A stretch of DNA of 64,000 nt. Origin: Prorocentrum cordatum. Taxonomy: Eukaryota. This document shows positions 2,880 to 51,053 of the stretch, piece after piece. Both the position numbers and the translations under genes were made by a program. Location of the stretch: the NCBI GenBank assembly GCA_963575745.1, contig CAUYUJ010000009.1, positions 1 to 64,000 on the forward strand, written 5' to 3'. Within the stretch, counting starts at the first letter, position 1, and each line of letters begins with the position of its first letter. The notes below the pieces were generated by a model, which saw only the letters and a program-made list of their open reading frames with translations, had not been told where the DNA came from and made no database searches.

Positions 2880-2994
2880 TTACCATCGGCATCACCGTCG
2901 TCCTCCTCCCCATCAGTATCGCCGGCATCACCAAACTCAGTACCATCACATCCAGCATCCTCGTCATCAGCATCAGCAGCAGCATCATCATCAA

Positions 2995-3032
<38 letters not shown>

Positions 3033-3126
3033 GCAGCAGCATCATCATCATCATCATCATCATCAGCATCATCAGCATCATCATCATCAGCATCATCATC
3101 AGCATCATCATCATCATCATCATCAG

Positions 3127-3172
<46 letters not shown>

Positions 3173-3256
3173 GTCCAGCATCATCGTCCTCATCCTCTCT
3201 CCACCTCCGCCGCCTCCTCCTCCTCCTCCTACATCCTCTTCTCATCAACATCATCC

Positions 3257-3691: not shown

Positions 3692-4924
3692 TCTCATCAT
3701 CATAACCCTCAGTTTCATCATCAGTTACATCAGTATCATCAGTAGCAGAATCATCATCAGCATCAGCATCATCAGTGTCATCATCATCTCATGATCAGCA
3801 TCATCAGCAGCAGCATCAACATCAGCATCGGCATCATCATCACAACTACCACCGTCATCATCACCATCACCATCATCATCAACATAAACAGAATCACCAC
3901 CATCATCATCATCGTCGTCATCATCAGCATGCTCGTCCTCCTCAACATCATCACCATGATCATCATCATCATCATCATCATCAGCATCATCATCATCAGC
4001 AGCCGTCTCAGCATCAGCAGCAAAAACAGCATCATCAGCAGCAGAATGATCATCGTCATTATGAGCAACGGCAACAAAATCATCAGCATCGTCATCATCA
4101 TCATCGTCAACATCATCAGCAGCAGCAGCATCATAAACATCATCAGCATCAGCATCAGCATCATCATCAGAAGCATCATCATCAGCATCATCATCAGAAG
4201 CATCATCATCAGCGTCATCAGCAACAGCATCATCAGCAGCATCATCATCGACATCAGCATCACCAGCATCATCATCATCATCATCATCATCATCCTCATC
4301 ATAATCATCGTCACCATTCGCACAAGCTGCATCATCATCACCATCTTCAGCATCATCAGCAGCAACATGATTGACAGCATATTGCCATGCATCATCACCA
4401 TCATCAGCATGATCATCAGCAGCAGCATCAGAATCATCATCCTCAGCAGCAGCATCATCATTAGCAGCAGCATCGGCATTGTCACCATCGTCATAATCAG
4501 CATCATCAGCAGCATGTTCATTATCAGCTGAATAATCAGCATCATCAGCATCGTCATCATCAGCATCAGCATCAACATCAGCATCAGCATCAGCATCATC
4601 AGCATCTTCGTTAGCATCACCATCAGCACCCGTAGCTTCACCATCATCACCAACATAATCAGCATCACCATCAGAAGCATCAACAGGAGCGCCATAATCA
4701 TCATCATCAACATCATCATCAGCTGCATCATCATTAGCATCGTCATCGTCATCGGCAGCAGTATCATCATCAGCTCTGCTTCATCAGCATCATCATAGTC
4801 ATCAGCATGGTCAGCAGCATCCTCATCATCATCGCCAGTATCAGCATCACCACCACCACCACCACCATCATCATCAGCAGCAACAGCATCATCAGTATCA
4901 TCATCATCGTCATCATCAGCATCC

Positions 4925-6569: not shown

Positions 6570-7042
6570 ATCTCATCTCATCCTCCTCCTCCTCGCTTCT
6601 CCTCCTCCCATCTCCTCCCTCCGCATCCTCCTCCTCCTCCTCATCATCATCATCATCATCCTCCTCGAACTCCTCCTCGTTTCAGCTCTCCTCCTCCTCG
6701 CTTCTCCTCCTCCTCGCTTCTCCTCCTCCTCCTCCTCCTTCTCCTCCTCCTCCTCCTTCTTCTCCTCCTCATCCTCGTCATTGCCCTCCTCCTCCTCGCC
6801 CCTCTCGCTCTGCCTTCTTCACCCTCCTCTCTCCCCCGCTCGCTTCTCATCCTCCTCTACTCCTCGTACTCCTCCTCCCCCTCTCCCTCCTCCTCCCTCA
6901 TCCTCCCTCCTCCTCTCTCATCCTCCTCTCCTCCACTCATCCTCCTCCTCCACCTCCTCCTCCTCCTCCTTCCTCCTCCCTCTCATCCTCCTCCTCATCA
7001 TCGTCATCATCATAATCATAATAATCATCTCATCATCATCAT

Positions 7043-7080
<38 letters not shown>

Positions 7081-7087
7081 GCATCAG

Positions 7088-7138
<51 letters not shown>

Positions 7139-7240
7139 GATTACCACCACCATCATCATCATCATCAGCATCATCATCAGCATCATCATCAGCATCATCA
7201 GCATCATCATGGTATTCATCATCATCATCATCATCACCAC

Positions 7241-7277
<37 letters not shown>

Positions 7278-7285
7278 GTCATCAC

Positions 7286-7320
<35 letters not shown>

Positions 7321-8472
7321 GTATCATCATCATCATCATCAGCAGCAGCATCATCATCATCAGCATCATCGTCATCATCATCATCATCATCATCATCATC
7401 AGCATCATCATCGTTATGATCATTATCAGCAGGATCACGCTCAGCATCAGCATCAGCATAATCATCAGCATCATCATCATCATCATGATCTTCAGCATCA
7501 CCACCATCATCATCATCATCATCATCATCATCAGCATCATCATCAGCATCATCAATGTCAGCCTCATCATCATCATCAACATCATCATCACCATCATCAT
7601 CATCATCATCAAATTCATCATCATTAGCATCATCATCAGCATCATCATGATCATCATCATCGTCATCACCATCATCATCGTCAGCTTCATCATCATCATC
7701 ATCGTCGTCGTCATCATCATCATCATCATCATCAGCATCATCAGAATCAGCATCATCATCATCGTAATCGTCATCATCGTCGTCATCATCATCAGCATCA
7801 GCGGCATCATCACCATCATCATCGCACCACCACCACCACCACAACCCCATCATCATCACCACCCACCACCACCACCATCCTCCTCCTCCTCCTCCTCCTC
7901 ATCATCATCATCATCGTCATCAGCATCATCATCATCAGCAGCATCATCATGAGCAGCATCATCATCATCATCATCATCATCAGCAGCAGCATCATCATCA
8001 TCATCAGCATCGTCAGCATCATCATCATCATCAGCATCATCATCAGCATCATCATCAGCATCATCATCATCATCGTTTGCATCATCATCATCATCATAAT
8101 CCGCATCGTCATCATCATCATCATCATCATCAGCATCATCATCAGCATCATCATCACCATCACCATAGTCATCATCGCCATCATCATCAGCAACACCATC
8201 ATCACCATCATCGCCATCATCAGCAGCATCATCATCAGCATCGTGACTTGCATCATCAGCATCATCAGCAGCAGCATCAGCATTATCATCATCGTCATCA
8301 GCATCATCACCATCATCATCCACATCAGCATCATTATCAGCATCATGATCATCAGCACCAGCCTCATCATCAGTATCATCATCATCATCAACATCATCAT
8401 AAGTTGCATCATCAGAATCATCAACATCATCAGCACCAGTATAATCATCATCATCATGATTATCATCATCAT

Positions 8473-8515
<43 letters not shown>

Positions 8516-8927
8516 GCCATCATCAGCATCATCATCGTCATCACCATCAGCAGCAGCATCAGTATCATCACCGTTATCAATATCATCAGCATCATCATGA
8601 TCACCCGCAGCATCATCAGCAGCAGCGTTAGCATCAGCATCATCATCAGCATCATCAGCATCAGAATCATCATCATCATCAGCATCATCAACAGTATCAT
8701 CGTCATCATCATCAACGCCATCATCATCATGATCATCATCAAGATCATCATCATAAGCATCATCATGATCATCATCATCAGCAGCAGCATCATCATCATG
8801 AGCCGTATCATTATGATTATCATCATCATCATCATCACAAGTTGCATCAGCATCACCTTCAGCATAGCATCCTCATGATCATCACCTTCAGCAGCAGCAT
8901 CAGCAGCATCATCATTAGCAGCAGCTA

Positions 8928-8963
<36 letters not shown>

Positions 8964-9041
8964 CATCATCATCATCATAGGTATCGTCAGCATCAACATC
9001 ATCAGCAGCAGCATCATCAGCCCCATCAATATCAACATCAG

Positions 9042-9083
<42 letters not shown>

Positions 9084-9170
9084 TACCATCATTAGCATCA
9101 TTATCATCATTATCATCATCGTCGTCATCAGCAGCATCAGTATCAGCATCAGCATCAGCATCAGCATCAG

Positions 9171-9205
<35 letters not shown>

Positions 9206-9362
9206 GCATCAGCATCAGCATCATCATCATCATCACCACCACCACCACCATCATCCTCCTCCTCCTCCTCATCATCATCATCATAATCATCATCATCCAT
9301 CATCATCAATTTCACCATCATCATCATCATCACCACCACCATCATCAGCAGCAGCATCACGC

Positions 9363-10982: not shown

Positions 10983-11100
10983 CGATGATGATGTTGATGA
11001 TGATTATGATGATGATTATGATGATGATGATGGTGATGATGATGATGGTGATAATGATGATGATGTTGATGATGGCGATGATGATGATGATGATGATGGC

Positions 11101-11149
<49 letters not shown>

Positions 11150-11950
11150 TTGCTGTTGCTGATGATGATGATGATGATGACAACGTCGATTGCGAGATCG
11201 ATTGTGATATCGGTAGTGAGACCGACTGTGAGATCGATTGTGCGATGCTGATGGTGATGATGGCCTTCATGGTGTTGATGTTTGTGATTATGATGACGAC
11301 ATTGATGATGATGATGATGATGGTGATGCTGAGAGATGATAATGGAGATGATGATGGTGATGATGATGGTGAGAGGTGATGACGCTGATGATCTCACTAT
11401 CGATTGTGATATCGATAGTGATATCGATAGTTAGACCGATTGTGAGATCGATAATGAGATCGATAATGCGTTCGATAATGCGTTCGATAGTGAGATCGAT
11501 AGTGAGACCGAATGTGAGATCGATTGTGAGATTGATTGTGATATCGATAATGAGATCGATAGTGAGACCGAACGAGAGATCGATAATGACTTCGATAGTG
11601 AGTTCGATAGTGAGATCGTTTGTGAGATCGATTGTGATATCGATAGTAAGATCGATATTGAGACCGAATGTGAGATCGATCGTGAGATCGATAGTGAGAT
11701 CGATTGTGAGATCGATCGAATGTGATCGATAGTGATATCGATAGTGATATCGATAGTGATATCGATAGTGAGACCGAATGTGGGATCGATTGTGAGATCG
11801 CTTGTGGTGTCGATAGTGAGATCGATAGTGAGACCGAATGTGAGATCGATTGTGAGATCGATTGTGAGATCGGTTGAGAGATCGATAGCCATATCGACTG
11901 TGAGATCGATAATGAGATCGATAATGAGATCGATAGTGATATCGATCGAG
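10983..11950. repeat. (GAT)n grading into a 12-bp GTGAGATCGATW array
   Basis: Direct inspection. Confidence 0.9.
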
Positions 11951-21027: not shown

Positions 21028-21848
21028 TACTGGACACTACTGGTGGTGCTACTGGACACTACTAGTGGTACTACTGGACACTACTAGTGGTGCTACTGGA
21101 CACTACTAGTGGTACTACTGGACATTACTAGTGGTACTACTGGACATTACTAGTGGTGCTACTGGACGCTACTACTGGTGCTACTGGACACTACTAGTGG
21201 TACTACTGGACACTACTAGTGGTACTACTGGACACTACTAGTGGTACTACTGTACACTACAGTTGTAGCTACTGGGGCACTACTAATGGTGCTACTGACA
21301 CTACTAGTGGGTGCTACTGAACCTACTAACTAGTGGTTTCTACTGGACACTACTATTTGGTACTACTGGACACTAGTGGTACTTACTGGACCACTACTAG
21401 TGGTGCTAACTGTACATACTAGTGGTACTACTGGACACTACTAGTGGTACTACTGGACACTACTAGTGGCACGACTGGTCACTACTAGTGGTACTACTGG
21501 ACACTACTAAGAGCACCACTAGTAGTGTCCAGTAGCACCACTAGTAGTGTCCAGTAGTACCACTGGTAGTGTCCAGCAGTAACACTAGTAGTGCCCAGTA
21601 GCACCACTAGTAGTGTCCAGTAGTATCACTGGTAGTGTCCAGTAGCACCACTAGTAGTGTCCAGTAGTACAAGTAGTAGCGTCCAGTAGTACCACTAGTA
21701 GTGTCCAGTAGTACCACTAGTAGTGTCCAGTAGTACCACTAGTAGTGCCCAGTAGTACCACTAGTAGTGTCCAGTAGTACCACTAGTAGTGTCCAGTAGC
21801 ACCACCAGTAGTGTCCAGTAGCACCACCAGTAGTGTTCAGTAGTACCA
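21028..21848. repeat. 22-bp tandem array that inverts at ~21511, forming a large palindrome
   Basis: CTACTGGACACTACTAGTGGTR on the left; YACCACTAGTAGTGTCCAGTAG on the right. Confidence 0.92.
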
Positions 21849-23540
21849 CGAGGGGGAGGAGGATCAGGAGGCGGAGGAGGAGGAACTGAGGAGGAGGAGG
21901 AGGAGGAGGAGGAGGAAGACCTGGAGGACGAGGGCGAGGTCGAGGAGGAGCAGGAGGAGGGGGAGGAGGAGACCGACGACGGGGTGGGCTCCCGCAGGCA
22001 CCCACGCCCGCAGCGACACCAGCACCGACGCCCGGGCCGACGAACAACTCCCACTCCGGCGCTGCAAAGGGGGGAGGGGGAGGAGGGGGAGGAGGAGGTG
22101 AAGGAGGAGAAGGAAGAGGAGGAGGACGGACGGGAGACGACGACGAATAAACGACGACGATGAGGAAGGACGAGGGGGAGGTAGGCTAAGAGGAGGAAGG
22201 AAGGAGGAGAGGAGGAGGAGGATGGGTGAGGTCAGGACGAGGAGGAGTGAGGAGGACGACGACGAGTGAGGAGACAGGAGGAGGAGGAAGGGGGAACCAA
22301 AAGGAACCAAAAGGGACCAAACGGAAACCAAAAATGCAACCATTTATGGTTCCTTTTTTGGTTCCTTTTGGGTTCCTTTTGGTTCCCTTTTGGTTCCTTT
22401 TGGTTCCCTTTTGGTTCCCCCCTCCTCCTCCTCCTCGTCGTCCTCCCCCTCCTCCTCCTCCTCCTCCTCCTTCCCCTCCTCGTCCTCCTTACGGACGGTG
22501 AATGTGGTCACGCAGTCGTCGTCGTCGTCGTCGGCGGGGCTCTTTTGGCCCCGCCCCCGCAGGCGGCGAGGCCAGCGTCGAGGCCGGCGTCGGCCTGCTT
22601 TCGGCCCAGCTGTTGCCGATGCTCTGAGAGGTGAGCTGTCCGGTTGGGCGCGGATGTGGAGGAGGAGGAAGAGGAGGAGGACGAGGAGGAGGAGGAGGGA
22701 TCCAGGATCCACACGCTTTTTCCGTGTTGCGACCGTGGCCGGAGCGGGACTTGCGATCTGGAGTGTTGTCGGACAGCATGTCCGATGCCGCTGCCTTGAA
22801 AAAAAAACAGTATTGATTTGTGCCCATTTCTCCCGAGTTGATCGTCGCGGCCAGCCCCATCCTTGCCCAACAGCAATCGCTGTCGGATAACGTTCCCCGC
22901 ATTTCGGTCCTCACCGAGCGCGCGGGAGAAAGTTCGTGAGGGTGGAGCGCATTGGAACCATGAGTAGGTTAGCTCCCGCCCAGAGGGGGAGGAGGGCGGG
23001 CAGGGGGAGGACCGAGGATACCTTTCCTGGGTTTCCTCCTCTTTCTCCTCTTCGTCGTCGTCGTCCTCCTCCTCCTCCCCCTCCTCCTCCTCTCCCTCCC
23101 CCTCTTTTTGTCTTCTCACCTCTGACTTGCCCCTTGCGCAGGCCCTTGGAGAGTCCATCCGTCAGGAGGGTCCATGTAACCTAAATGGGGTCTGCGCCTG
23201 GTCTTCTCTCTGCCGCCCTGCTCCTGTCCTGATACGTCTGTTTGTGCATGGCAGGAGAGCAGACCTCCTCGCGCCTACACGGCATCTCGGATTAGCGTCC
23301 CGATTGGATGCAACACTCGGGCCAGATAGTACGTGGGCCTCGCGGTCTGCATTCGGGTCAGACAGTACAATGGCCTCGCGCGTCTCGCTCGGGCCAGACA
23401 GTACGTGGGCAGCGCGCGCCTCACTCGGACCAGACAATACCCATGGGCCTCGCGCGGCGAGCTCGGGCCAGACAGTGCCCATGGGCCAGCGCTGCGCCAG
23501 CCGCCCCGTTCGGGCCCCCGCCCTGCCCGGAGGAGGGCCC

Positions 23541-31377: not shown

Positions 31378-33308
31378 TTTTGGCACGCTGCAGGATGTTC
31401 ACACGGTGGTCTCGCGATGGGGAACTTCCCTCAGTGGAAGTGAGTCCTTGTATGGGGCCTATAGAGAGGGAGCTTGGAGGGAGGGTGTATCCCAACATCG
31501 TTGATGAGTCTTGGGTTTACACTGGTCCTCCTCCTCCTCCTCTTCCTCCTCCTTCTCCATTCCTTTCCTGATGGATACTTCCTACCTGTCGCACACCGAG
31601 GTCTGTCGGAAGTGTGGGCAGGCCGTTTCGCCGGAGACTCCCTTACCATTTATGGGCCTGAAGCTTATAAACTGACAACAGTTTAACAGATGGAGGGCGG
31701 GTCGCTTCCAAAATGTGGCTCTCACCTTGACGCGACGAACATTCGTCAAAAAATATTGCAGGAGCTTCACGAGGGCGGGTCGAATCCAAAATGTGGCTCT
31801 CGCCTTAGCGCCGCGTGCACTCGTCTTAAAATTGGCAGGATCACGGATTGAGGGCGGCCCGTTCTCAAAATGAGGCTCTGGCGTTTGCGCCGCGCACATT
31901 CGAGTTCAAACATTTGCAAAAGCGTCACAGATTGAGGGCGGGTCGTTCAAAATGTGGCTCTCGCTGTGGCGCCGCGCACACTCGTCCTTCGAAATTCGCA
32001 AGAACTTCCCGGATTGAGGGCGGGTTCTTTTCAAAATGTGGCTCTCACCTTAGTGCCACGCACATGCGTTATCAAAAATCCCAGGGGCTCGCGTATTATC
32101 ATGGTTTACCCTCCGGAAATTGTGTTTCCAGCGATTCATGATTGCAAGAGCGCAACAGTTACGTTGACTCGCAGTGTTAAGTCCCAGGAGTGGTTTTCTG
32201 GCACGATTCAGGATCGACAAGACGCAACAACCAGGTTGTCTCGTAGCGTTGAAGTCCTGCGAATGATATTCTGGCACGCATCAAAACTTTACACACGGTT
32301 GTCTCCCGACGGGGCAACCCCCCAGTGGAAGTGGATCTTGGTATGGGGCCTATAGAGAGGCAGCTTGGAAGGGCGCCTACGAGGGCGAATCCGAACATCA
32401 TTGATGAGTGTTGAGATTGCACTGGTACTCCTCCTCTTCCTCCTCCTCCTCCTCCTCCTCCTCCTCCTCCTCCTCCTCCTCCTCCTCCTCCCCCTCCTCC
32501 TCCTCCTCCTCTTCCTCCTCCTTTTCCTCCTCATCATCCTCCTCCTTTCCTCACCCTCCTCATCCTCCTCATCCCCTTCCTTCTCCTCCTCTTCCTCCTC
32601 GTTTTGGTACGCGTCCGGACTTTCACACGGTTGTCTCCCAACGGGGCACTTCCCTCAGAGGACATGACCCCTTGTATGGGGCCTATGAAGAGGCAGCTTG
32701 GAAAGAGGGTGTATCCCAACATCGTTGATGAGCTTTGAGTTTACACTGGTCCTCCTCCCCCTCCTTCTCCTCCTCCTCCTCCTGCTCCTGCTCCTCTTCC
32801 TCCTCCTCCTCTCCTCCTCCTCGCTCCTCCTCCTCTCCTGCTCCTACCTCCTCCTCCTCCTCCTCCTCCTCCTCCTCCTCCTCCTCCTCCTCCTCCTCCC
32901 CCCTCTCCTCATCTCCTCCCTCCTTCCCTCCCTCCCTCCCTCCCTCCCTCCCTCCCTCCCTCCCTCCCCTCCCTCCTTCCCCTCCCTCCCTATCCCCTAT
33001 CTCCCTCCCTCCCCGTCCTCCTCCCTCCCTCCCTCCCTCCCTCCCCTCCTCCTCCTCCTCCTCCTCCTCCTCCTCCTCCTCCTCCTCCTCCTCCTCCTCC
33101 TCTCTCCTCCTCCTCCTCCTCTCCTCCTCCTCCTCCTCCTCCTCCTCCTCCTCCTCCTCCTCCTCCTCCTCCTCCTCCTCCCTCCTCCTCCTCCTCCTCC
33201 TCCTCCTCCTCCCCTCCTCCTCCTCCTCCCCTCCTCCTCCTCCTCCTCCTCCTCCACCCTCCTCCTCCCTCCTCCTCCTCCTCCTCCTCCTCATCATCAT
33301 CAATCATC

Positions 33309-33366
<58 letters not shown>

Positions 33367-33387
33367 TCACACACCATCATCACCATC

Positions 33388-33424
<37 letters not shown>

Positions 33425-33469
33425 TCACATCATCATCATCATCATCATCATCATCAGCATCAGCATCAG

Positions 33470-33501
<32 letters not shown>

Positions 33502-33547
33502 ATCATCATCATCATCATCATCATCAGCATCATCATCATCATCATCC

Positions 33548-33583
<36 letters not shown>

Positions 33584-34390
33584 GCATCATCATCATCATC
33601 ATCCTCCTCCTTCTCCTCCTCCACCTCCTCCTCCTCGTCCTCCTCTTCCCCTCCTCCTCCTCCTCCTCCTCCTCCTCCTCCTCCATATCCTCGTTCCTTC
33701 CTATGCCTTAACAGTAACTTCTGTCGCACCCCGAGGCAAGCTGTTAGGGCGGACCGGGCGTTCCGCCTGAGACTTCATCACCAGTATGACCCTGATGTCT
33801 CAACATTGGCAACAGCTTCACAGATGGAGGGCGGCCCGTTCTCAAAATTAGGTTATGGCGTTAGCGCCGCGTACATTCGCTGTAAAGATGAAAGAACTTC
33901 ACAGATTGAGGACGGCCCGTTTTCAAAATGTGGCTCTCGCCTTAGCGCCACGTAGAGCCAGTGTGAAAAATCAACAGCTTCACGGATTGAGGGCAACTCC
34001 TTTTCAAAATGTGGTTCTCGCCTTCGTGCCGTGCACATTCGTTTGAAGGTTTGCAAGGGTTTCACGGGCTCCCATGATCAGCATACCACACATGGTGTTT
34101 TCGACGGGTTCAGGGTTATGAGGGCACAACAATTACATCGAATCGCGGTGTTGAAGTCCCAAGAATGGCGTTATGGCACGGCTCATCTTCGTCAAAACAG
34201 TCCAGTTGATCCGTGGTGTTGGACTCCCGAGGACAATGTTTTGACACGCTTCAGGGTGTTCAAACGGTTGCCTTCCAACGAGGCAGTTCCCTCTATGGAA
34301 GTGAACCCTTTTAGGGCCACGGAAGAGGGAGCTTGGAGGGAGGGATGATGACAACATCGTTGATGGCTCTTGGGTTTACACTGGTCGTCC
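31378..34390 (+). repeat. Dispersed ~150-bp (CCT)n-tailed repeat (4 copies) plus a duplicated block carrying ~60-85-bp subrepeats
   Basis: ...TATGGGGCCTATAGAGAGG..GCTTGGA...CAACATCGTTGATG...TTTACACTGGTCCTCCTC at ~31378, 32269, 32602 and (more diverged) 34240. GATTGAGGGCGG...CAAAATGTGGCTCTC subrepeats at 31690-32060 and 33820-34030. Confidence 0.75.
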
Positions 34391-34927
34391 TCCTCCTCCG
34401 CCTCCTCATCCTCGTCCTCATCCTCATCCTCATCCTCCTCGTCCTCCCCCGATTCCGACTCCGACTCCGACTCCGATTCCGACTCCGACTCCGACTCCTC
34501 CATATCCTCCTCACTAACTCACTCACTCACCCACCTCCACGGCGCACGCCGCGGTGCCCAGCACCTCCACAGCGCGGCCGCGCCGACGCGTCGCGCGGCG
34601 CCGCGCCCGCCTAACCGCAACAGAGTGGGCGACCAGGGACCCGCAGGAGAGGTGACGAGGATCCAAGGCCCTGGAGCATCTCCTTATCCTCCTCCTCCTC
34701 CTCCTCCTCCTCTTCCTCCCTCCTCCTCCTCCTCCTCCTCCTCCTCCTCCTCCTCCTCCTCCTCCTCTTCCTCCTCCTCCTCCTCCTCCTCCTCCTCCTC
34801 CTCCCCCTCCTCCCCTGTTCAGCCTTTCAGCCTTTGATTGCAGGATCCCACGTGGTGAGACCAGCAGCAGAGAGAGAGGGCGAAGCAGAAACGGGTGGGG
34901 GGGACAAGATTTGGGCAACACAGCATC

Positions 34928-35930
34928 TCAACCCCTCTGGATGGGGATGGTGGAAGGGTCTACCCCCCGCTTCAGGAGGGATAGACTAGTGGCAGCATCT
35001 CTGTTCGCTGGCCGGCCGAGGCACTCGCCGGCCAGCCTCAAGATTTTAGCTCTGCCAAACCCTCCACACGCCGCACAGTTGTACACCCGCAGATTCTGGA
35101 CGGATTCGATGCTTCCCCAGAGACGATGGGTCGAGTGCGCCTGACGAATTATCCTGGGTGTTCCCGCGCAACGCGCTAGGACTAGACCTGTGCAAGCCCG
35201 CGCACGGGAAAGACAAATCTTACACACAAAACCTTTTGCCACAGTGCTGGGCCTGGTGACCATTCGGGCTCGGCACTATGAGCAGCCCCTCAGGTTTGGC
35301 CCTGGGCATAGCTTTACAAGCCTGAACGTCAGGAAAACGCCTCACTGCACACTGTCCGAGCACCCTAGCAGTGAAGCGGGCGAGGGAAGCAGGCCGCACG
35401 GCCTGCCTGGCCCCCAGCTCCTGGGGGCGCCTCGAGTGCGGTAGCTCACTGGCGGCCTTCTTGGACAGGGAATACACAGCACGGTTGCCGCGCCACGCCC
35501 AGGCTGGACAGCCGAGCGCCGCCGCCTGAGCACTGCTCTTGTGAGCAGGGTCCTTGAATGACTCCACCGCGTCAGGTCCTCGGCCCGACAACAGCGCAAA
35601 AACCTCGTGCCAGAATTCCCCGAAGGACAAATCCGCGCAGTCCTGGAGACACCCTCGGGACCAAACAGAAATCAAAGCTTGACCATCTATTCCCACTTCT
35701 AACTGCTCAGGCCCTGCATGCCTGAGAATCATTAGAAGAGCATATAACTCAGTCCCATATATATATATATATCCTGCATGGGGCGAGGGAAAGGCCCAGA
35801 CGCACTGGCCAAATATCACCCACATCGTTCATCATGGCGACGGCCCGACCCGCTCTGCTGCGGCGCCGCAGTTGCGGTTCGAACACTGAACCATCGGAGC
35901 AAATCTTACCTGAAACGAAACCGTCAGGCG
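34928..35930 (-). pseudogene. LINE ORF2 RNase H domain and Cys/His C-terminal tail
   Basis: SDGS, ELYAL, IDGQ, KDPAH, RGN motifs, then CKIC and HSTH...CAACGGFG...C. Interrupted by a (TA)n run near 35758-35772. Confidence 0.82.
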
Positions 35931-36899
35931 GGGGAACAATCCACCTCCACCTGCCCAGCGTCTTGGGAACAGGGGTCCTGACCGTAGGGGGGGAAAGGAG
36001 GCAACGAGTGAGGAAGGGGCCACCAGGGCCCCCTTGTTCCCACTCAGGCAGCTCCTTCTTCAAAACCCTGGTCTCGGCGAAACAGCTGATTCCCAGGACA
36101 ACCAAAAATTCGATTAAACCTGCCCCCTTGCGGGAAACCACAAAGCTGGCCAGCCCCGCTCAGAACCCGACGATCCTGAAATAACTCTAACTGGGTGACC
36201 AATCCCCCAGGCACATGGGTAGCCAACAACGAGGCCTCCAGGGCCTCCCCTTTCTTCCTGAGCTCCTCGCAGACCTGGGCAATTGGCTCCAGCATGGGCC
36301 TGGCGTGGGCGACGCCGCCGCGCCCCCAACGCAGGTCGCCCCAGCAACTCTCCTTAGTTGCTATGTCCACGAGGCGCTTGGGATTATGACTCCTAAGCTT
36401 GCGGAGGTCCATCGGCAACTCAGCCGGCACAACCCACTTGGAGTAACTCACAGGACCCTACTTAATCCTCTGAAGCGCGCAGATAACAGCCCCCGTGGGA
36501 CCTCTAACACCCGACCAGGACAACCCAGGACACTTCTGAACGTACAACCTGAAGACCTGCCCCATCTGCTGCTTCGGAGCCCACGAGCCCCAAACCGCTT
36601 CGCCCCAGAACACCAGAGGTGCCGAAGTGCCGATATAAACTGGGTCAGCGGCCTCATTGCCTGAGAGAGCGAACTGAATAGTTCTCGCACGCCCTCGCGT
36701 TGGCCCAAAAATGCCTTCGGCGCCGATCTGAGGCACTGCAGGCGCCTGTCAGAAAAGGAAAAGAAGAAGAGGAAACAAGCAACACCACCACAAAAAAAAA
36801 AAACTGCCAGCGGAAGCGCACCCGAACGCGAGACCGACGTGAGCTTTTTGAACTGGGAGTTGAGCGAACGGTACCGACCTGCCCTCAATCTGACCCTGC

Positions 36900-37840
36900 A
36901 CGTCCGATTTTTCTGGGCACGAGCAGCCCGACCCCGAATCGAGCAATCACAACCGAGATTCCGAACCGAATGCTCCGATTTGAACCCGCACTGCTTATGC
37001 CCTGCGCAGATGCCAGCAGATAATTCAGCAGTAGAGGCCACCAATGTACCTGTACTTCTAGAAATAATAAGCTGTCTGGCCTCGAGGCCGTCGCAAAGTT
37101 CGCGCGCGGCCTTGACGGCCGAGCCCCTGGCTAACTTGGCAGTTGCTATCACCTGAACCGCGATGTCATCGACCACGTTAGAGAACCTGCACAGACAGTG
37201 CCCCCGAACCACATTATCTAGCTCCGAAAGAAGAAGGACCCTCAATGAGGCCGCTGCATGTCCGCATCCTGCCAAGATAGTTGCATATACCACTGAGGGC
37301 CCGGCAACGAGAAGGCCCATTAGTAGCACGCGCGGGCAAAAATAAACGACCAAGCACACACGCAGGCGGCACAAAGGGAAACTGCGCCGCCGAGCAGCCG
37401 CTCCGAGCTGAAGATGCTTCACCTTCTCGTAGGCTTTGGCAAGATCCACCAGCACGTTCGCCACCGGAGGGAGAAGAAACAAAAAAATGCGCCGTCGCAC
37501 GCTCCGCTACAAACGCTTGCCCCCAAACTGCTCTCTCACAAGACTCCCCTTTCGTCCCATAAGAATGACTCCTCTTATGCCCCCGCCCCCACGCGGCTGC
37601 TACGCGTCTAGCACATCTGCTCCACAACCGAACCGTCACACTGAGAAGCGCAATGAGCCTGTGACCCTCGTCATCTGGCTTCGGCAACGCTGGCTACAAG
37701 GCAAGAGAAATCTGCGACGGCACCACCCCGCCTCGGAGCATCCAGCCCCACAAAGCGTTCAGCGCCAGCAAACATTCGTCAGATAGCAGAAGAAAATCAC
37801 GAGGTCCAAGCCTGTCGACTCCACGCGCCGCCCAAGCTTT
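36900..37840 (-). pseudogene. LINE ORF2 reverse transcriptase domain
   Basis: PKPDDEGHRLIALLSVTVRLWSR, VDLAKAYEKV, ILAGC, NVVDDI (YxDD equivalent), VRNLG; split by frameshifts. Confidence 0.9.
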
Positions 37841-38739
37841 CATCTTCTTAACTACTTATCTGATATCTTCGGGGCTGAAGTCCATGACGGGGCTGGGGAA
37901 GCCCTTCAAAATGTCCCCCAGCTTCTGGAACACGCCTGCTGGATCTTCTAGGGGCCTGCTGCTAGAGCCACTAGAGTCCCATATGCGCCCCCATTCCTGG
38001 AGGTTTTGCTCTATGAGGTCTGCGGGCCCAGGCGGAGCTTGTCCTTGTCGGGGCACCACAGGGCGCCAACCTACAGGGGGCTTCGTGCACTGGTGAGCTC
38101 GGCCTGCTCCTGCCTGCACTGCCTCCTGGACAAAACCCCGCCACTGCTTAGCACGCGAGCTGGCAAACTGCGCCTCCAGCTTCTAAGCGCAGCCTCCAGC
38201 ACGCCCATGCAAATCATATAGAGCCCCAGCGTCGCACCAAGACAGATACCCTGCATCGAGATACCACATACTCTTCCACTCTTCAGTCCCACGCATCTCA
38301 GGGGCGCCGCGGAGTATCTTGGCGAACAGCGCCGCAGCTCCCACAGCATCCTTAACAGAGCCCTGGGCTCGAATTCTGGACAGCTCCCGGGCACAATTCC
38401 CCCACCTCTTCCAAGCCCTGCTGACTGGGCAGGCCGCAGGTTAAGGGCCAGAGGAGGGGGGAAGGGCAGGGATGGTTTTGAGCTTCCAGCCCCGCCCCCG
38501 TCCAATATATCGTTTTCGCTCAGCCTCGGGAATTCCATGCACTGCCAGAAGCTCATTCTCTAACAACCGGATAAAATTTCCGAAAACTGAATTCATCTGA
38601 CGCTGGTCTCCTCCTTCCCCCATACTCTGACGTACTCCGTTCCATTCCTCAGAAGGTGCAGGAAGTGGGCCATGTGGGCGCTCTCGAGGAAACTTGCGCG
38701 GTGCCTGCAGGACTGTGGGGGATCAGCTTGCCTCTGAGC

Positions 38740-39470
38740 CTCAGCAACACAGGGCGACGAGGCTGGACAGGCGCATTCGACGCCACCGTGCAAGAGACCA
38801 CTGACGGCGCCAGCACGTCAGAGACCACGAAGTAATCTAACGTCCGCCATTCTCGCTTACCTGCCGTGCAAGTAGGAGATGCTGGGGCTACGATACGACC
38901 TCGAAGTTTACTCGCCCATCCAAGACGCCCCAGTAGTGCTGGCGGTGCATTCCAGTCTCCCCCGATCAGGAACGGCAACGAGGCGGCATGCAAAAACTCA
39001 CCCAACCGACTCAACAGCAGAGCCCCTTCCGATCCAAATGGATCAGAAGTCGGCAAATACACCGAGACGGCCAAGAACCCCCCAAGTATCACTGGATTGT
39101 TCCATTTCACCAAGACACGATGCGGATACTGAAGGGGTTGAGGTCGCCCAGGAGGATTTCCCATTCCAATGCAAGCTGGGACCCCAATAGCAACTCCCCC
39201 AGAGAGCGCCCCAGCCTCTGTGGTGCGCGAAGGACTTACCGCTGCCAGCAGCCCTTGATCACGCAACATCTCCTCGCAGTCGTGCTTCCGATCCTGCGAG
39301 ACTCCTACTTCTTGCAAGAGAAAAATGTGGGGCCCTCTGGGAGACACACTCGACTTGCCACCCCGGAGAGCCTGCCGAAAAAGTGCTTCTTTTCTGCGAG
39401 CCTGCGCCTAGGCCTCGATGTACGACAAGCACGGCTTCCAGCTCGTGGTGTTGACCGTGCGAAGGTACAG
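38740..39470 (-). pseudogene. LINE ORF2 apurinic endonuclease (EEP) domain
   Basis: Motifs TVNTTSW, FLLQE, SGGVAI, VSVYL, IGGDWN, PTC, TLDYFVVS. One in-frame stop near 39408. Confidence 0.9.
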
Positions 39471-39480
39471 GTCTCCTAGG

Positions 39481-40622
39481 CTAAAGCCCAGGCCTCCTGG
39501 GCCCTGCTTTCTCAGTGGCCGAGCCCTTGCCGTTGGCGCTGCTGCTGCTGCTGCTGCCCTTGCTGCTGCTGCTGCCGCCCTTGACACAGGACTTGGCCTT
39601 CTGAAAAAGCTCATTGACTGACGGAACTGCGGCCGAACCTGCCGTAGCCGCTGGGCTGGCCTGGGCTCCTGCAGCCACTGGCGCTGCTGCTGCCTACGCC
39701 GCAGCCGCCGCAGGGCCAGCAGTCGCCACTGGTGGAGCCTGAGCTGGCTGGCCAACTCCCCCATCACCTGTAGCATCCTCTTCATCTCGTCTACGACGCT
39801 TGGCCTGCATCCTCTGGTTGAAGCGGCGCTGTTCCTCGACCATCTTGACACACTTCTCCTGCATGGAACCGAAAGCCTCCTTGGTCACCTCCTGCACCAT
39901 TGCCAACAAGGCCGCCTTGCGACTGTTGAGTTCGTCCTTCTCACCCTCGCTATTCTCGATGCCTTCCAGATCCAATCCGATCAGGCCGTTACCATCGAGC
40001 TCGATAGTTTCACCGGCAAGGAGGGCTTGGAGGCTGATGCGCTGAGCTTCGCTAGCAACACACGCATCCTTTGTGGCGACCACTTCAGATGCGAGCTTGG
40101 CCACCGACTCTTTGTATATCTGCTCACACCGCTCGAATGTGTTATACGCATCTGCAGCCCGCTCTCGTGCCTGTTGCGCCTGGGACTCCAGGGTTTCAGC
40201 ACTCCGTGACTGCGGCCTCCATCTGCTGGCGGGCCTGCTCCATCGCGTACTGCGCCACCCCGACCGAAGGTGACTGGGGCTTCGCTGCGTCTTCGAGCTG
40301 CTTGATGATCGCCTCCAACTTCCAAGATGCGTCATCGTCTCCGATGGCCGCCATGGACTTCTCCCAGTTGCAGTCCCACAGCGCGAGGCGGAGGAGCGCC
40401 CCCGCCATAGTTGCCAGCATCACCGCGAGCATGTTGAAACGCATAGCTCCAAACTCCCGACGGCTGGGCTCCTGATGCTGCTTGAACCTCTTTGCGCTGC
40501 GCACCACAGTGCTTGCACCAAGTCCACCATCCTTCGTTCTTCGAACAACTGCATGTTGTGCACTTCCACTTCTGCTGCCAAGACTTCTTCTTCCATCCAG
40601 CACCATAATCACGTGGGGCCAT
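39481..40622 (-). pseudogene. LINE ORF1 (RanBP2-like zinc finger + coiled coil), frameshifted
   Basis: First ATG after the SL (40622) gives MAPRDYGAGWKKKSWQQKWKCTTCSCSKNEGWWTWCKHCG. Continues through ORF pieces 40196-40612, 39694-40335 and 39481-39678 with helical E/Q/A/K-rich sequence. Confidence 0.75.
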
Positions 40623-40793
40623 CAGGCGGGAAGAACGAGCGTGGAAGAGTGAGGGATGAGGTCCCTCAACCTGAGAAATATGGAAAGCCGTGGGCACCTC
40701 GTGCCCCAAGCAACCTGAAGAGCCGGTCGCTACGGAGGGGTCCAAAGCTAATCGCTGGACCTCGGGCGTTTATAGCCCTTCGCAACGTTTAGC

Positions 40794-40815
40794 CTTGAGC
40801 CAAAATGGCTTCGGA
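40794..40815 (-). other. Dinoflagellate spliced-leader (DinoSL) copy at the LINE 5' end
   Basis: Reverse complement TCCGAAGCCATTTTGGCTCAAG matches DCCGTAGCCATTTTGGCTCAAG at 21/22. Confidence 0.95.
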
Positions 40816-41200
40816 TCCTCCTCCTCCTCCTCCTCCTCCTCCTCCTCCTCCTCCTCCTCCTCCTCCTCCTCCTCCTCCTCCTCCTCCTCCTCCTCCTCCT
40901 CCTCCTCCTCCTCCTCCTCCTCCTCCTCCTCCTCCTCCTCCTCCTCCTCCTCTCCTCCTCCTCCTCCTCCTCCTCCTCCTCCTCCTCCTCCTCCTCCTCC
41001 TCCTCCTCCTCCTCCTCCTCCTCCTCCTCCTCCTCCTCCTCCTCCTCCTCCTCCTCCTCCTCCTCCTCCTCCCCTCCTCCTCTCCTCCTCCTCCTCCTCC
41101 TCCTGCCCCTCCTCGACCTCATCCTCCTCCCTTGGGGACTGGGGTGTGCACGGGGGGCGCGGCGGCGCCCGCGTCGGCGGGGGCGCCCTGGGGCCGCGGC

Positions 41201-41249
41201 CTTTCTGAAGTACTTGTTGTAATAATAAGCGAGGTGCGACTCGTGGAAC
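41201..41249 (-). CDS. Micro-exon 4 of host gene; peptide (S)FHESHLAYYYNKYFRK
   Basis: CAG acceptor, 49 nt (1+48, phase-compatible with exon 3), GC donor (AAG|GCCGC). Confidence 0.88.
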
Positions 41250-42052
41250 CTGGTCGCCAGGAGGGGGGGGGGGGGGGCGACGGGATGAAAGGGGGCGAGG
41301 GGATGAGGGGTGTGCAGGAGGTGAGGAGGAGGAGGAGGAGGAGGAGAGAGGAGGAGAGGAGGAGGAGAGGAGAGGAGGAGGAGGAGGAGGAGGGGGGCAG
41401 GGGGAACGAGGAGGGATGCGGGAGATAGGGGATGAAGGGGAGCGACGGGGGTGCACGTAGGGGGGTGAAGGGGAAGGAAAAGGGAAGAAGGACCGATTAG
41501 AGAGAGGGGGGGGCGGAACGAGGGGGCGGGGCGAGGAGAGGAAAGGGAAGAAGAGGATGACAGGGGGGAGGACAGGAGAGGACAGAAGCGGACTGGAGAG
41601 GGCAGGAGGAAGGCAGGACACGACATGACAAGATAGAAGGGGGCGAGAAGACGAGGGGTGCTGACATAATAGAGGGCGCAGAGAGATGAGAGGGGTGAAG
41701 ATGAGAGGAGCGAGGCAAACAAGGTGCGTTCGCGCTACATCTGACATCATAACCATCCCGCCAAGTTCGTCCAATTGTTTCAACTTATGGTGTATTCGCC
41801 GAGTGTGCGATCTTAAGTGGAAGTTGCGGGACTTGGTACATCGCAATCGGCGGGAGAGGGCTTTACACAGTGGAGAGGGAGAGAGAGAGAGAGAGAAAGT
41901 GGGGTGAGAGAGAGAGAGCTGACAGATACACAGACAGACAGACAGACTGACTGACTGACTGACTGAAAAACTGATTGAATGACTGACAGAAAGACTCTGC
42001 GCTCGAAACCTCTCCGCATAGAAAGCTTAGCAACGAGGCATGCACGGCGACC

Positions 42053-42091
<39 letters not shown>

Positions 42092-42272
42092 ACGACAGCG
42101 ACAACGGCGACGGCGACGGCGACGGCACGACGGCGGCGACGGCGACGGCGGCGACGACCACGACCACAACCACGACCGCGACCACGACCACGACGACGAC
42201 AACGACGACGACGACGACGACGAGTATGACGACGACGACGACGACGACGACGACAACGCGATGCGAGGGAAC

Positions 42273-42316: not shown

Positions 42317-42618
42317 CTGTGCGCCCGGGGTTTGCGCTGGCGTCGCGAGGGCCGCCACGGCAAAGAACCACAAGGGCCTGTTTTTTTATTGCTCGCGATA
42401 ACGGGCGTGATCGGGGAGGGCGGGGGTTTCGTTCCCCCACGCCACATCACGGCGGGGGGCCGCCGGGAAGCTTGGGAAACCCTCGGAGAATTCGTAAGAC
42501 ATCTTTGCGACTGCGGGCAAAATAGCGTGACGAGGTCCAGGGGGGGAGGGAGAGGGCCGCTATCGCCCAGACACTCAACAAAAAATGCACACATAACAAG
42601 CACAAGAACAACAAGAAT

Positions 42619-42706
<88 letters not shown>

Positions 42707-43437
42707 ACAACAACAACAGCAACAGCAACAGCAACAGCATCAACATTCATGTTAAGACTATTCGTTTCTGTCTGCTCGTTTGCCATTCAACACGTATATC
42801 CAAAGCCCTCTGTACCCGCCCTCTTCGTCTTCGATCATATCACACCCTCCATGGAGGTAGATCTTCCTTACCTGCCACGTGCATATAGTGCAGCTCCTAA
42901 AAGAAGGGAAGAGAGGACGGATGGAAGGGGGACGGAGAGAAAACACGTAGCAGAACCAGACAGGCAAACCGGGCGGGCAGACCCTAGCCGGCGGGGCGGG
43001 AAGGCGGGCCCAGGGGGCCAGGTCGAGCAGGCGGGTTGCTCAAGCGACCGTCTGGCATGAATCGCGAGGAAGTCTGGAGCGAGAGCGCGATTCCAACGCA
43101 AACGCGCGATTCTTGAGTAATTTGCAAGCGAGTCTCCAGCCAGAGCACGACTCCAGACCGCCGAGAGAGCGATTCCTGAATAAATTGTAAGGACGTCCCA
43201 ACGAAAACGCGATTCCTGAGTAAAATGCAAGGAAATCTCAGGCGGGAGCGGGGATCCTGACTAACTGGTGAGGTAGTCTCACGCTTGAACCGTTGTTGTT
43301 GTTCTCGTAATCCGGGTGCCAAAAACGCATTTTGAGCCCCGTGACCTTCCCTGATTAAAAAAGGGTGCGAGCCCTGGGAGAAGCACTTCAATAATGGTCA
43401 CCAGAAGGGAGGGATCAACCATAATTACAACAACAGC

Positions 43438-50678: not shown

Positions 50679-50744
50679 GCATCAGCATCAGCATCATCAT
50701 CATCATCATCATCATCATCACCATCACCATCACCATCAGCATCG

Positions 50745-50795
<51 letters not shown>

Positions 50796-50869
50796 GCATC
50801 GTCATCATCATCAGCATCAGCACCAGCATCATCATCATCATCATCATCATCATCACCATAACCATCATC

Positions 50870-50900
<31 letters not shown>

Positions 50901-51053
50901 ACATCATCATCATCATCATCAGCATCATCATCATCATCATCATCATCAGCAGCAGCATCAGCATCATCATCATCAGCATCATCATCAGCATCATCAACAT
51001 CATCATCATCATTATCATCATCGTCGTCAGCATCACCATCATGATCAATCATC

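Follow-up and report, generated by a model that had tools for sequence, protein, structure and literature searches.

A LINE headed by the dinoflagellate spliced leader in Prorocentrum cordatum and the possible origins of its 5' end

Results

An element that begins with the spliced leader

The window analysed here is a 64-kb stretch of the genome of the dinoflagellate Prorocentrum cordatum (positions 1 to 64,000 of contig CAUYUJ010000009.1, assembly GCA_963575745.1). It carries a long interspersed nuclear element (LINE), all coordinates of which are on the minus strand, and whose first nucleotides are a copy of the dinoflagellate spliced leader (SL), DinoSL. The sequence TCCGAAGCCATTTTGGCTCAAG at 40815-40794 matches DinoSL at 21 of 22 positions, with an A instead of a T at position 5. 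The match is unique within the window when up to three mismatches are allowed, and none of 100 shuffled sequences gave any. By our own arithmetic, the probability of meeting a 21/22 match by chance in 128 kb is ~5e-7. The match, its uniqueness and the shuffles thus confirm the claim of an earlier note on this DNA that a LINE on the minus strand has the SL at its 5' end.

The insertion begins at nucleotide 1 of the SL, exactly between a (GGA)n microsatellite and the leader of the element. We take this 5' microsatellite (40816-41130; Tandem Repeats Finder: period 3, 106 copies, 94% matches) as the target site. Another (GGA)n tract (34687-34813; 42 copies, 93% matches) flanks the 3' end of the element, which lies at about 34814-34816 and sets the total length at 6.0 kb. 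The 3' tract might be the tail of the element, the second half of the target site, or a combination of the two: with (GGA)n on the two sides, tail, target and any target-site duplication are indistinguishable. The earlier note spoke of pure (GGA)n; the tracts are nearly pure.

SL, leader and first open reading frame (ORF1) are contiguous, without intervening repeat. The leader (40793-40623) runs for 171 nt without an ATG, and the first ATG stands at 40622, just as previously described. Its initial part, at 40742-40793, starts with GC and is set apart by contig ends and by its fold as a conserved 5' module, either the start of the 5' untranslated region (UTR) of the LINE or the intronic part of an SL RNA. 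The remaining ATG-free leader, read from the sequence, covers 40623-40741.

Comparing the element with the window (blastn and tblastx, E<=1e-5) revealed no terminal repeats, internal repeats or second copy, and its only non-self matches were five tblastx fragments of 14-21 aa. The element has no long terminal repeats (LTRs) and is of the non-LTR type; an LTR element was rejected for lack of repeats. No other SL and no SL-RNA-gene spacer were found in the window, and an Rfam scan of 34000-41600 returned only sub-threshold chance matches.

Coding regions and family

The ORF1 remnant (39500-40622) starts at the ATG and has an approximate end, placed by analogy with the 370-aa ORF1 of L145, the second element described below. 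It is open for 96 aa, from 40622 to 40335, before a frame shift. The remnant has a C-x2-C...C-x2-C motif (WKCTTCSCSKNEGWWTWCKHCG), and a search of the window ORF1 for a zinc ribbon in Pfam gave nothing significant. Downstream, Pfam Exo_endo_phos (PF03372) matches 38652-39407 with an E of 2.5e-8, which marks an endonuclease (EN) of the apurinic/apyrimidinic endonuclease (APE) type. The remaining domains were placed by tblastn against P0001, a 1577-aa protein from a metagenome that combines EN, reverse transcriptase (RT) and RNase H, with a Pfam RNase_H match at its residues 1239-1386. The window is collinear with this protein over residues 109-1570. The EN piece lies at 39236-38733 (residues 109-278), the RT core at ~37700-36811 in two frames (residues ~590-944), the RNase H domain at 36000-35568, again in two frames (residues 1208-1347, E 8e-5), and the C-terminal Cys-rich tail at 35077-34934 (residues 1523-1570, E 0.002). 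The ORF2 stop codon (34930-34928) and a short 3' UTR of ~112 nt, without A-run, complete the element (34816-34930). The succession of EN, RT, RNase H, Cys tail and (GGA)n given in the earlier note is therefore upheld by the Pfam match of the EN, by the collinearity with P0001 and by the tandem repeat search.

The RT core is assigned by homology, not by a direct Pfam match. At E<=1e-3, phmmer retrieved 609 proteins for the 352-aa RT piece; 69 of them passed E<=1e-10 and 0 passed E<=1e-30. When 30 long matches were scanned with Pfam (E<=0.001), RVT_1 was present in 26/30, some of these falling below Pfam's curated cut-off, Exo_endo_phos in 11 and RNase_H in 5. By eye, the RT motifs can be read as ..GHRLIALL.., VDLAKAYEKV and VVDD. 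Three of the 10 top matches that were looked up belong to Prorocentrum cordatum, one of these also to Polarella glacialis, and these dinoflagellate proteins are the nearest relatives that bear a name. The closest relative of the RT piece, at 77% identity over 66 aa, is P0003, a 67-aa fragment in a transcriptome set labelled Pyramimonas sp. CCMP1952. Its source may be a dinoflagellate contamination of the Pyramimonas data set, and it hints at the transcription of a close family member somewhere.

The copy is structurally complete but dead. The seven collinear alignment segments to P0001 are in frames 3, 1, 2, 1, 2, 3 and 1, i.e. at least six frame changes, and one of them carries four in-frame stops. 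We call the copy dead because of these frame changes and stops and because of its short ORF1. "Full-length", as the element had been described, is hence apt for its structure but not for its coding capacity.

Further copies of the family were sought in the DNA run X1 (share 0.24), whose contig pieces were aligned at >=80% likeness. There are many: 294 pieces aligned to the stretch, 21 of them at >=99% identity, 28 at 95-99%, 75 at 90-95% and 170 below 90%. No pieces of run X2 aligned, and run X3 gave 6 short pieces, on low-complexity parts only. From these identities and from its relatives, the element belongs to an old and diverged multi-copy family of dinoflagellate-type APE LINEs with an RNase H domain.

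A second LINE with the same layout

Scans for exact SL copies yielded 119 stretches in IMG/VR viral contigs and 20 in GTDB genome contigs. LINE homology was found at 1/138 SL loci, L132 from GTDB, whose whole contig is L145. This is a GC-rich contig of 9096 nt that was binned in a bacterial metagenome-assembled genome and that we read as a dinoflagellate contig. It opens with a (AGAGAGAC)n/(AG)n repeat at 1-115, followed by a perfect SL (21/21) at 117-137, so that the insertion starts at SL nucleotide 2. The leader is 93 nt long and free of ATG, and its first two letters, TC, are no splice donor. Behind it come an ORF1 of 370 aa with a zinc ribbon (Pfam Zn_ribbon_RanBP, E 1.4e-7), an ORF of 686 aa that matches no Pfam family, and an intact ORF2 of 1422 aa with EN (E 2.7e-9), RVT_1 (2.1e-11) and RNase_H (4.8e-6). 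After the stop, a 3' UTR of ~36 nt ends in A6 and gives way to (GA)n. This copy is apparently functional. Compared with PDB sequences, its ORF2 retrieved RNase H1 only; in the protein atlas it led to unnamed EN-RT-RNase H clusters.

The two LINEs have the same layout: a purine microsatellite, the SL, a leader, a small ORF1 with a Cys motif, EN-RT-RNase H, and the same microsatellite again. Their ORF2 proteins are only ~27% identical, and the layout therefore recurs across distant members of the family.

Inside L145 there is a further, degenerate SL relic (GGCGTGGCCTTTTGGCTCAAG) at 3937-3957, between the 686-aa ORF and ORF2. A match within four edits occurred in 4/300 shuffles. The relic suggests that the SL may have been added to this lineage more than once, and hints at a previous stage with an SL. 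Tandem repeats of ~180 nt occupy 4100-4760, downstream of the relic.

We searched for further SL-headed LINEs in several ways. In the genome contigs, the L145 ORF2 matched only itself, and the proteins P0134 and P0020 had no match. An SL 17-mer occurs in at least 122 stretches of the genome contigs, and 0/111 new loci among those listed had LINE homology. In metagenome contigs, a degenerate 25-nt leader pattern had 0 matches, and an alignment of five proteins found four short loci (L141-L144), none of which reaches the 5' end or has an SL within four substitutions. The same alignment detected no relative in the viral contigs, where all 119 SL stretches were without LINE homology. Finally, the translated SL was absent from all 159 collected proteins.

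Microsatellite flanks

A microsatellite abuts both ends in 2/2 elements, (GGA)n in the window and a (GA)n-type repeat in L145, and both LINEs lie with their sense strand along the purine strand of the repeat. On the plus strand of the window, (TCC)n-type tracts of >=24 nt, excluding the two flanks, add up to ~1.1 kb of the remaining 58 kb. With a coverage of ~2%, landing in such a tract by chance is therefore unlikely. The pattern would fit a nick in the pyrimidine strand, with priming by the purine-repeat tail of the RNA, as we infer from two copies.

The plus strand of the window is strongly biased in its repeats, with 1497 nt in tracts of the (TCC)n type and 243 nt in those of the (GGA)n type. 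Other long repeats of the window are (TCA)n at 33291-33603, (ACA)n at 42602-42745 and (CGACGA)n at 42054-42258.

Microsatellites also occur next to SL copies that are not part of LINEs. The 20 distinct GTDB SL sites comprise six SL RNA genes and two sites without upstream sequence; a microsatellite abuts the SL in 4/12 others (L120, L123, L132 and L134), which we take as a lead only. L123 is an otherwise bacterial contig, probably chimeric, and its SL junction may stem from the assembly. The non-LINE copies with a 5' microsatellite are L120:1-59, L134:1-56, L123:1-52, L168 (SL on the minus strand) and row UN05 in Table S1 of a study of Fugacium kawagutii (PMC6616646), where (GA)n stands directly upstream of the SL. 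The repeats 5' of these copies are GT/GC-rich, (GACA)n, (TCA)n, (GCAT)3 and (GA)n.

Discussion

Origin of the spliced leader at the 5' end

We favour the view that the element is the reverse-transcribed copy of a trans-spliced LINE mRNA. This is the most likely of the readings we considered, and we give it about an even chance of being right. The LINE transcript would be processed like any dinoflagellate mRNA, and trans-splicing would add the 22-nt SL at an AG|G acceptor that immediately precedes GCTAAACG. Proteins encoded by the element itself would copy this capped mRNA as far as its first nucleotide, through target-primed reverse transcription at a (GGA)n tract nicked on its pyrimidine strand. 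The insertion would consequently start with the 22 nt of the SL and be bounded by (GGA)n at either end. The genomic SL might later be used again, by way of its terminal AG or of its T-rich core acting as a promoter. Under a further hypothesis, put forward in the earlier note, each copy might possess its own acceptor and could be excised from a host intron.

The SL stands at the start of the insertion in both the window LINE and L145, and therefore an RNA with a 5' SL was reverse-transcribed to that end at least twice. The proposal that an SL-capped RNA was copied to its first nucleotide holds in so far as the window insertion starts at SL nucleotide 1 and that of L145 likewise starts with the SL. 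It is less secure as regards the nature of this RNA, since the GC-starting module of the window also fits a copy of unspliced SL RNA. The SL of the window is followed by a G, and a G likewise follows the 3' splice sites of Symbiodinium (PMC4083563). The non-donor TC after the SL of L145 would also point in favour of an mRNA.

Several observations weigh against this view. The number of SL-headed LINEs is two, and L145, having been found through its SL, is uninformative on frequency. The frameshifted RT pieces of the window have no match to RVT_1 in Pfam. Stacked truncated relics (CCATTTTGGCTCAAG) behind the SL, such as re-splicing at an internal AG would produce, are missing both from the window, which has a single SL, and from the terminal SL of L145. 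There is thus no sign of a lineage cycling through SL-bearing copies; this lack is compatible with splicing at the terminal AG and equally with descent from an SL-less master copy.

The other adverse points concern what follows the SL. The module of the window starts with GC, a legitimate donor in dinoflagellates. In X1, similarity to the element is lost at 40742 in four contigs and at 40729 in four, and the continuations beyond these points are heterogeneous, agreeing only at 0.57-0.61. The summed depth in X1 is 163 in the 5'-most bin and 5-42 in the other bins, with 12.9 at 40681 and 40717, although such depth is not fit for ranking the parts. Together, the SL and the next 52 nt (a 74-nt unit) fold at -29.3 kcal/mol (z -3.19; 2/200 shuffles as good). 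The structure consists of the SL hairpin plus a long stem in which UUAGCUUUG pairs with the AAG|GC junction, and it ends exactly at 40742. In these respects, the initial 52-65 nt behind the SL have the character of a separate unit, a discrete, structured and over-represented module.

The last of the adverse points is a likeness to F. kawagutii. The 'SL genes' listed for this species in Table S1 of PMC6616646 include four rows (UN11, SL-2-UN1, SL-3-UN1 and DinoSL_like-2-UN2) that resemble the sequence after the SL of the window. The likeness, seen by eye only, extends over 16/19 positions from the SL junction with one 2-nt gap, and further on AGGTC..ATTAG..TTT..GACC recur in the same order. The authors call this post-SL sequence an SL-gene intron, and their text gives GU or GC as the start of every sequence downstream of the SL. 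Contrary to this, rows UN04, 05, 07, 08, 09, 10, 13, 14 and 15 of the table start with CT, AT, TT, TC, CC or AG. The resembling rows have one, two or three SL units and unrelated upstream flanks (PMC6616646), as repeated trans-splicing plus retroposition predicts. Many entries in the table resemble SL relicts that are transcribed. Should the Fugacium sequence represent the start of a retro-copied RNA, the mRNA model would gain strong support; should it be a real SL RNA intron, template switching would have made the window element an SL-RNA/LINE chimera.

Two further comparisons were made. L125, L126, L131 and L137 are clear SL RNA genes, of the form SL|GTAC...U-run. The leaders of the window and of L145 showed no significant similarity to the SL-RNA introns of these four loci (best p 0.18 for the window, 0.04 uncorrected for L145). 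Searched against 256 collected loci, the 65-nt module found only itself.

Within the leader, TCCGTAGC, which equals SL nucleotides 1-8, stands at 40736-40729 of the minus strand, 57 nt past the SL, and ends where four X1 contigs lose similarity; by our own arithmetic, the chance of any SL 8-mer in the leader is ~0.04. The leader also has a TTTCTCAG|G site near 40671. One X1 contig joins 22 SL letters straight to 40674, skipping 119 nt, and this single contig, with a side of <30, fits weakly with an alternative SL addition site.

LINEs are known to fuse with small RNAs. In U6/L1 and other chimeras of this kind, a small nuclear RNA copy is joined to the 5' end of the LINE in one insertion, and template switching is how L1 makes them. 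They are the model for the main rival of the mRNA reading, in which the RT would have reached the 5' end of the LINE RNA, switched to an unspliced SL RNA (exon plus intron, ~74-87 nt) and copied it to the cap. In that case, a 5' SL would be no proof that the LINE RNA had been trans-spliced. We consider such an SL-RNA/LINE chimera possible, though well short of probable, the module being a putative SL RNA. The chimera would account for the loose ends at 40742 and 40729 and the depth of 163 in the last bin of X1, and for a fold that pairs AAG|GC with UUAGCUUUG and stops at 40742. Lying inside the insertion, between the (GGA)n flanks, the module arrived together with the LINE. However, it lacks the U-run or terminator of L125, L126, L131 and L137 and any significant similarity to them, the SL of L145 is followed by a leader that is not a donor, and chimeras of this type are rare where they are known. 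The Fugacium data cut both ways. The GC start agrees with the GU or GC stated for SL-gene introns, and the post-SL sequences of Dino.SL-1-UN11, SL-2-UN1 and SL-3-UN1 are alike by eye, but the 'SL genes' of that table are heterogeneous, many rows starting with CT, AT, TT, TC or CC, and the unrelated flanks and SL ladders of the resembling rows suit retrocopies better than functional SL genes (PMC6616646).

The conservation and over-representation seen at the level of the module might alternatively mean that the ~75-87 nt with the SL are an inherited 5' part of the LINE family, captured once from SL RNA or from an SL-capped RNA, with transcripts that start at or near SL nucleotide 1, have an SL-like 5' end from the outset and need no trans-splicing in each generation. 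The two insertions do begin at SL nucleotide 1 or 2, and both LINEs (2/2) have a single SL without a relic ladder. There are also precedents for a promoter in such a place, in the 77-nt Pr77 that opens trypanosomatid LINEs and SINE-like elements (SINE, short interspersed nuclear element) and drives their transcription (PMC8190864), and in the proposal of Song et al. 2017 that the T-rich core of DinoSL relicts can serve as a core promoter (PMC5585692). Yet the leader of L145 is unrelated to the module of the window, which leaves nothing common beyond the SL, the upstream flank is a microsatellite, and this account is the least parsimonious; we find it improbable. Hardly credible, in our opinion, is an accident in which the LINE landed beside an existing SL relic or SL gene, or a misassembly across (GGA)n. 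Long (GGA)n tracts are indeed where assemblies fail, only 21/294 X1 pieces are >=99% identical to the window, and none of those listed spans the whole stretch. But SL, leader and ORF1 follow each other without a repeat, L145 has the same order in an unrelated assembly, the window holds neither an SL-RNA-gene spacer nor a second SL, and the chance of the 21/22 match in 128 kb is as low as ~5e-7.

A broader scheme can be drawn, which seems to us unlikely as a whole. Dinoflagellate LINEs of this group would lack a conventional promoter and would have the SL, or a module derived from SL RNA, as a heritable 5' end, which would restore itself through its AG or give transcripts born with an SL-like cap. 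They would home into purine microsatellites and would have written the thousands of SL-tagged retrogenes.

Comparison with known systems

Dinoflagellate genomes contain thousands of retrogenes marked by SL relicts, and Slamovits and Keeling reportedly treated such DinoSL-relict retrogenes as 'recycled cDNAs' in 2008. The window element resembles these retrogenes in that a genomic SL marks the 5' end of an RNA-derived copy. It differs in that the SL tags a whole retroelement, which extends from the SL to the 3' end, with a defined microsatellite boundary, no poly(A) and no ladder of truncated relics. Song et al. 2017 found the Gene Ontology term 'RNA-dependent DNA replication' enriched among DinoSL-relict genes, and RT-type genes with SL relicts are therefore already implicit in print (PMC5585692). 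What mediates the reverse transcription is stated to be unknown in one paper (PMC5585692), and so is the responsible type of retroelement in another, which favours LTR elements (PMC6050394). A LINE with a DinoSL terminus, or SL-RNA/LINE chimeras, had no description in the passages and abstracts covered by our literature search, the original SL RNA gene papers and further supplements being outside its scope. What is new is the combination of a LINE with an SL relict, both kinds being already known.

The L1Tc/ingi LINEs of trypanosomatids are a parallel in another lineage. They too are of the APE type, live in hosts where all mRNAs are SL trans-spliced, and share a discrete 5' module of ~77 nt among many elements. 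Their Pr77 is an internal promoter giving unspliced transcripts, and these elements are not SL-headed, whereas the window element is (PMC1874656, PMC8190864).

Retrotransposons joined to spliced-leader sequence are known in SLACS/CZAR/CRE and NeSL-1, which are inserted in the exons of SL RNA genes and encode a restriction-like endonuclease. The window element differs from them by its (GGA)n flanks, the whole SL ahead of it and its APE-type endonuclease. We considered an SL-gene-specific element of the SLACS/CZAR/NeSL type and rejected it: the flanks are (GGA)n and not halves of an SL gene, and the endonuclease is of the APE type and N-terminal to the RT.

Dong, Kibi and Koshi are non-LTR retrotransposons that target microsatellites. 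Like the elements studied here, such retrotransposons have a microsatellite on both sides of the insertion; microsatellite targeting is mainly described for elements with a restriction-like endonuclease (PMC4640811), whereas the window LINE and L145 are of the APE type.

Implications for dinoflagellate retrogenes

Full-length LINE copies headed by the SL show that RNA with a 5' SL is copied by a LINE reverse transcriptase right up to the 5' terminus. LINEs are therefore a concrete candidate for the machinery behind the retrogenes. The origin of the retrogenes thereby becomes testable, as insertion sites, microsatellite flanks and 3' ends can be compared between them and these LINEs. The result also contrasts with the other large lineage with trans-splicing, the trypanosomatids, whose LINEs use the internal promoter Pr77 and have unspliced transcripts. 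If instead the module proves to be SL RNA, it would be a case of SL-RNA/LINE chimeras, for which our literature search found no description, and a warning against taking every genomic SL with GC or GU behind it as the mark of a trans-spliced mRNA.

Other spliced leader copies, flanking genes and repeats

L130 has its SL on the minus strand at the end of the contig, followed by two truncated relics (CCATTTTGGCTCAAG twice; forward-strand matches 12-28 and 42-58). It is a classical relic ladder of the type seen in neither LINE.

The SL stretches of IMG/VR (L001-L119, mostly from bins of giant-virus metagenome-assembled genomes) lie on AT-rich, giant-virus-like contigs, as exact DinoSL 21-mers at gene starts. 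The motif AAAA[AT]TGA stands 37-52 nt (median 49) upstream of 121/132 distinct viral SL sites, against 1/132 downstream, and recalls the Mimiviridae early promoter. It looks as if these viral genes might be transcribed with a built-in host spliced leader. In a literature search confined to titles, no paper title stating a built-in viral SL turned up.

The host gene around the LINE, with the exon 4 supposed in the earlier note, found no support among the flanking ORFs. There are 377 ORFs of >=90 aa outside the element, 160 of which were dropped as being of low complexity (top three residues >=50%). The 217 scanned with Pfam matched no family, apart from one sub-threshold acidic low-complexity match.

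At 21028-21852 and 10984-11243 (with 7038-9279, 2960-3173 and 50705-51047), the window also contains a 248-nt inverted repeat, 92% complementary, whose arms are 297 nt apart, and a dispersed repeat of ~230-260 nt in both orientations. Upstream of the LINE, translated fragments of the kind ..RNGALARDF.. occur repeatedly. These look like another repeat family.

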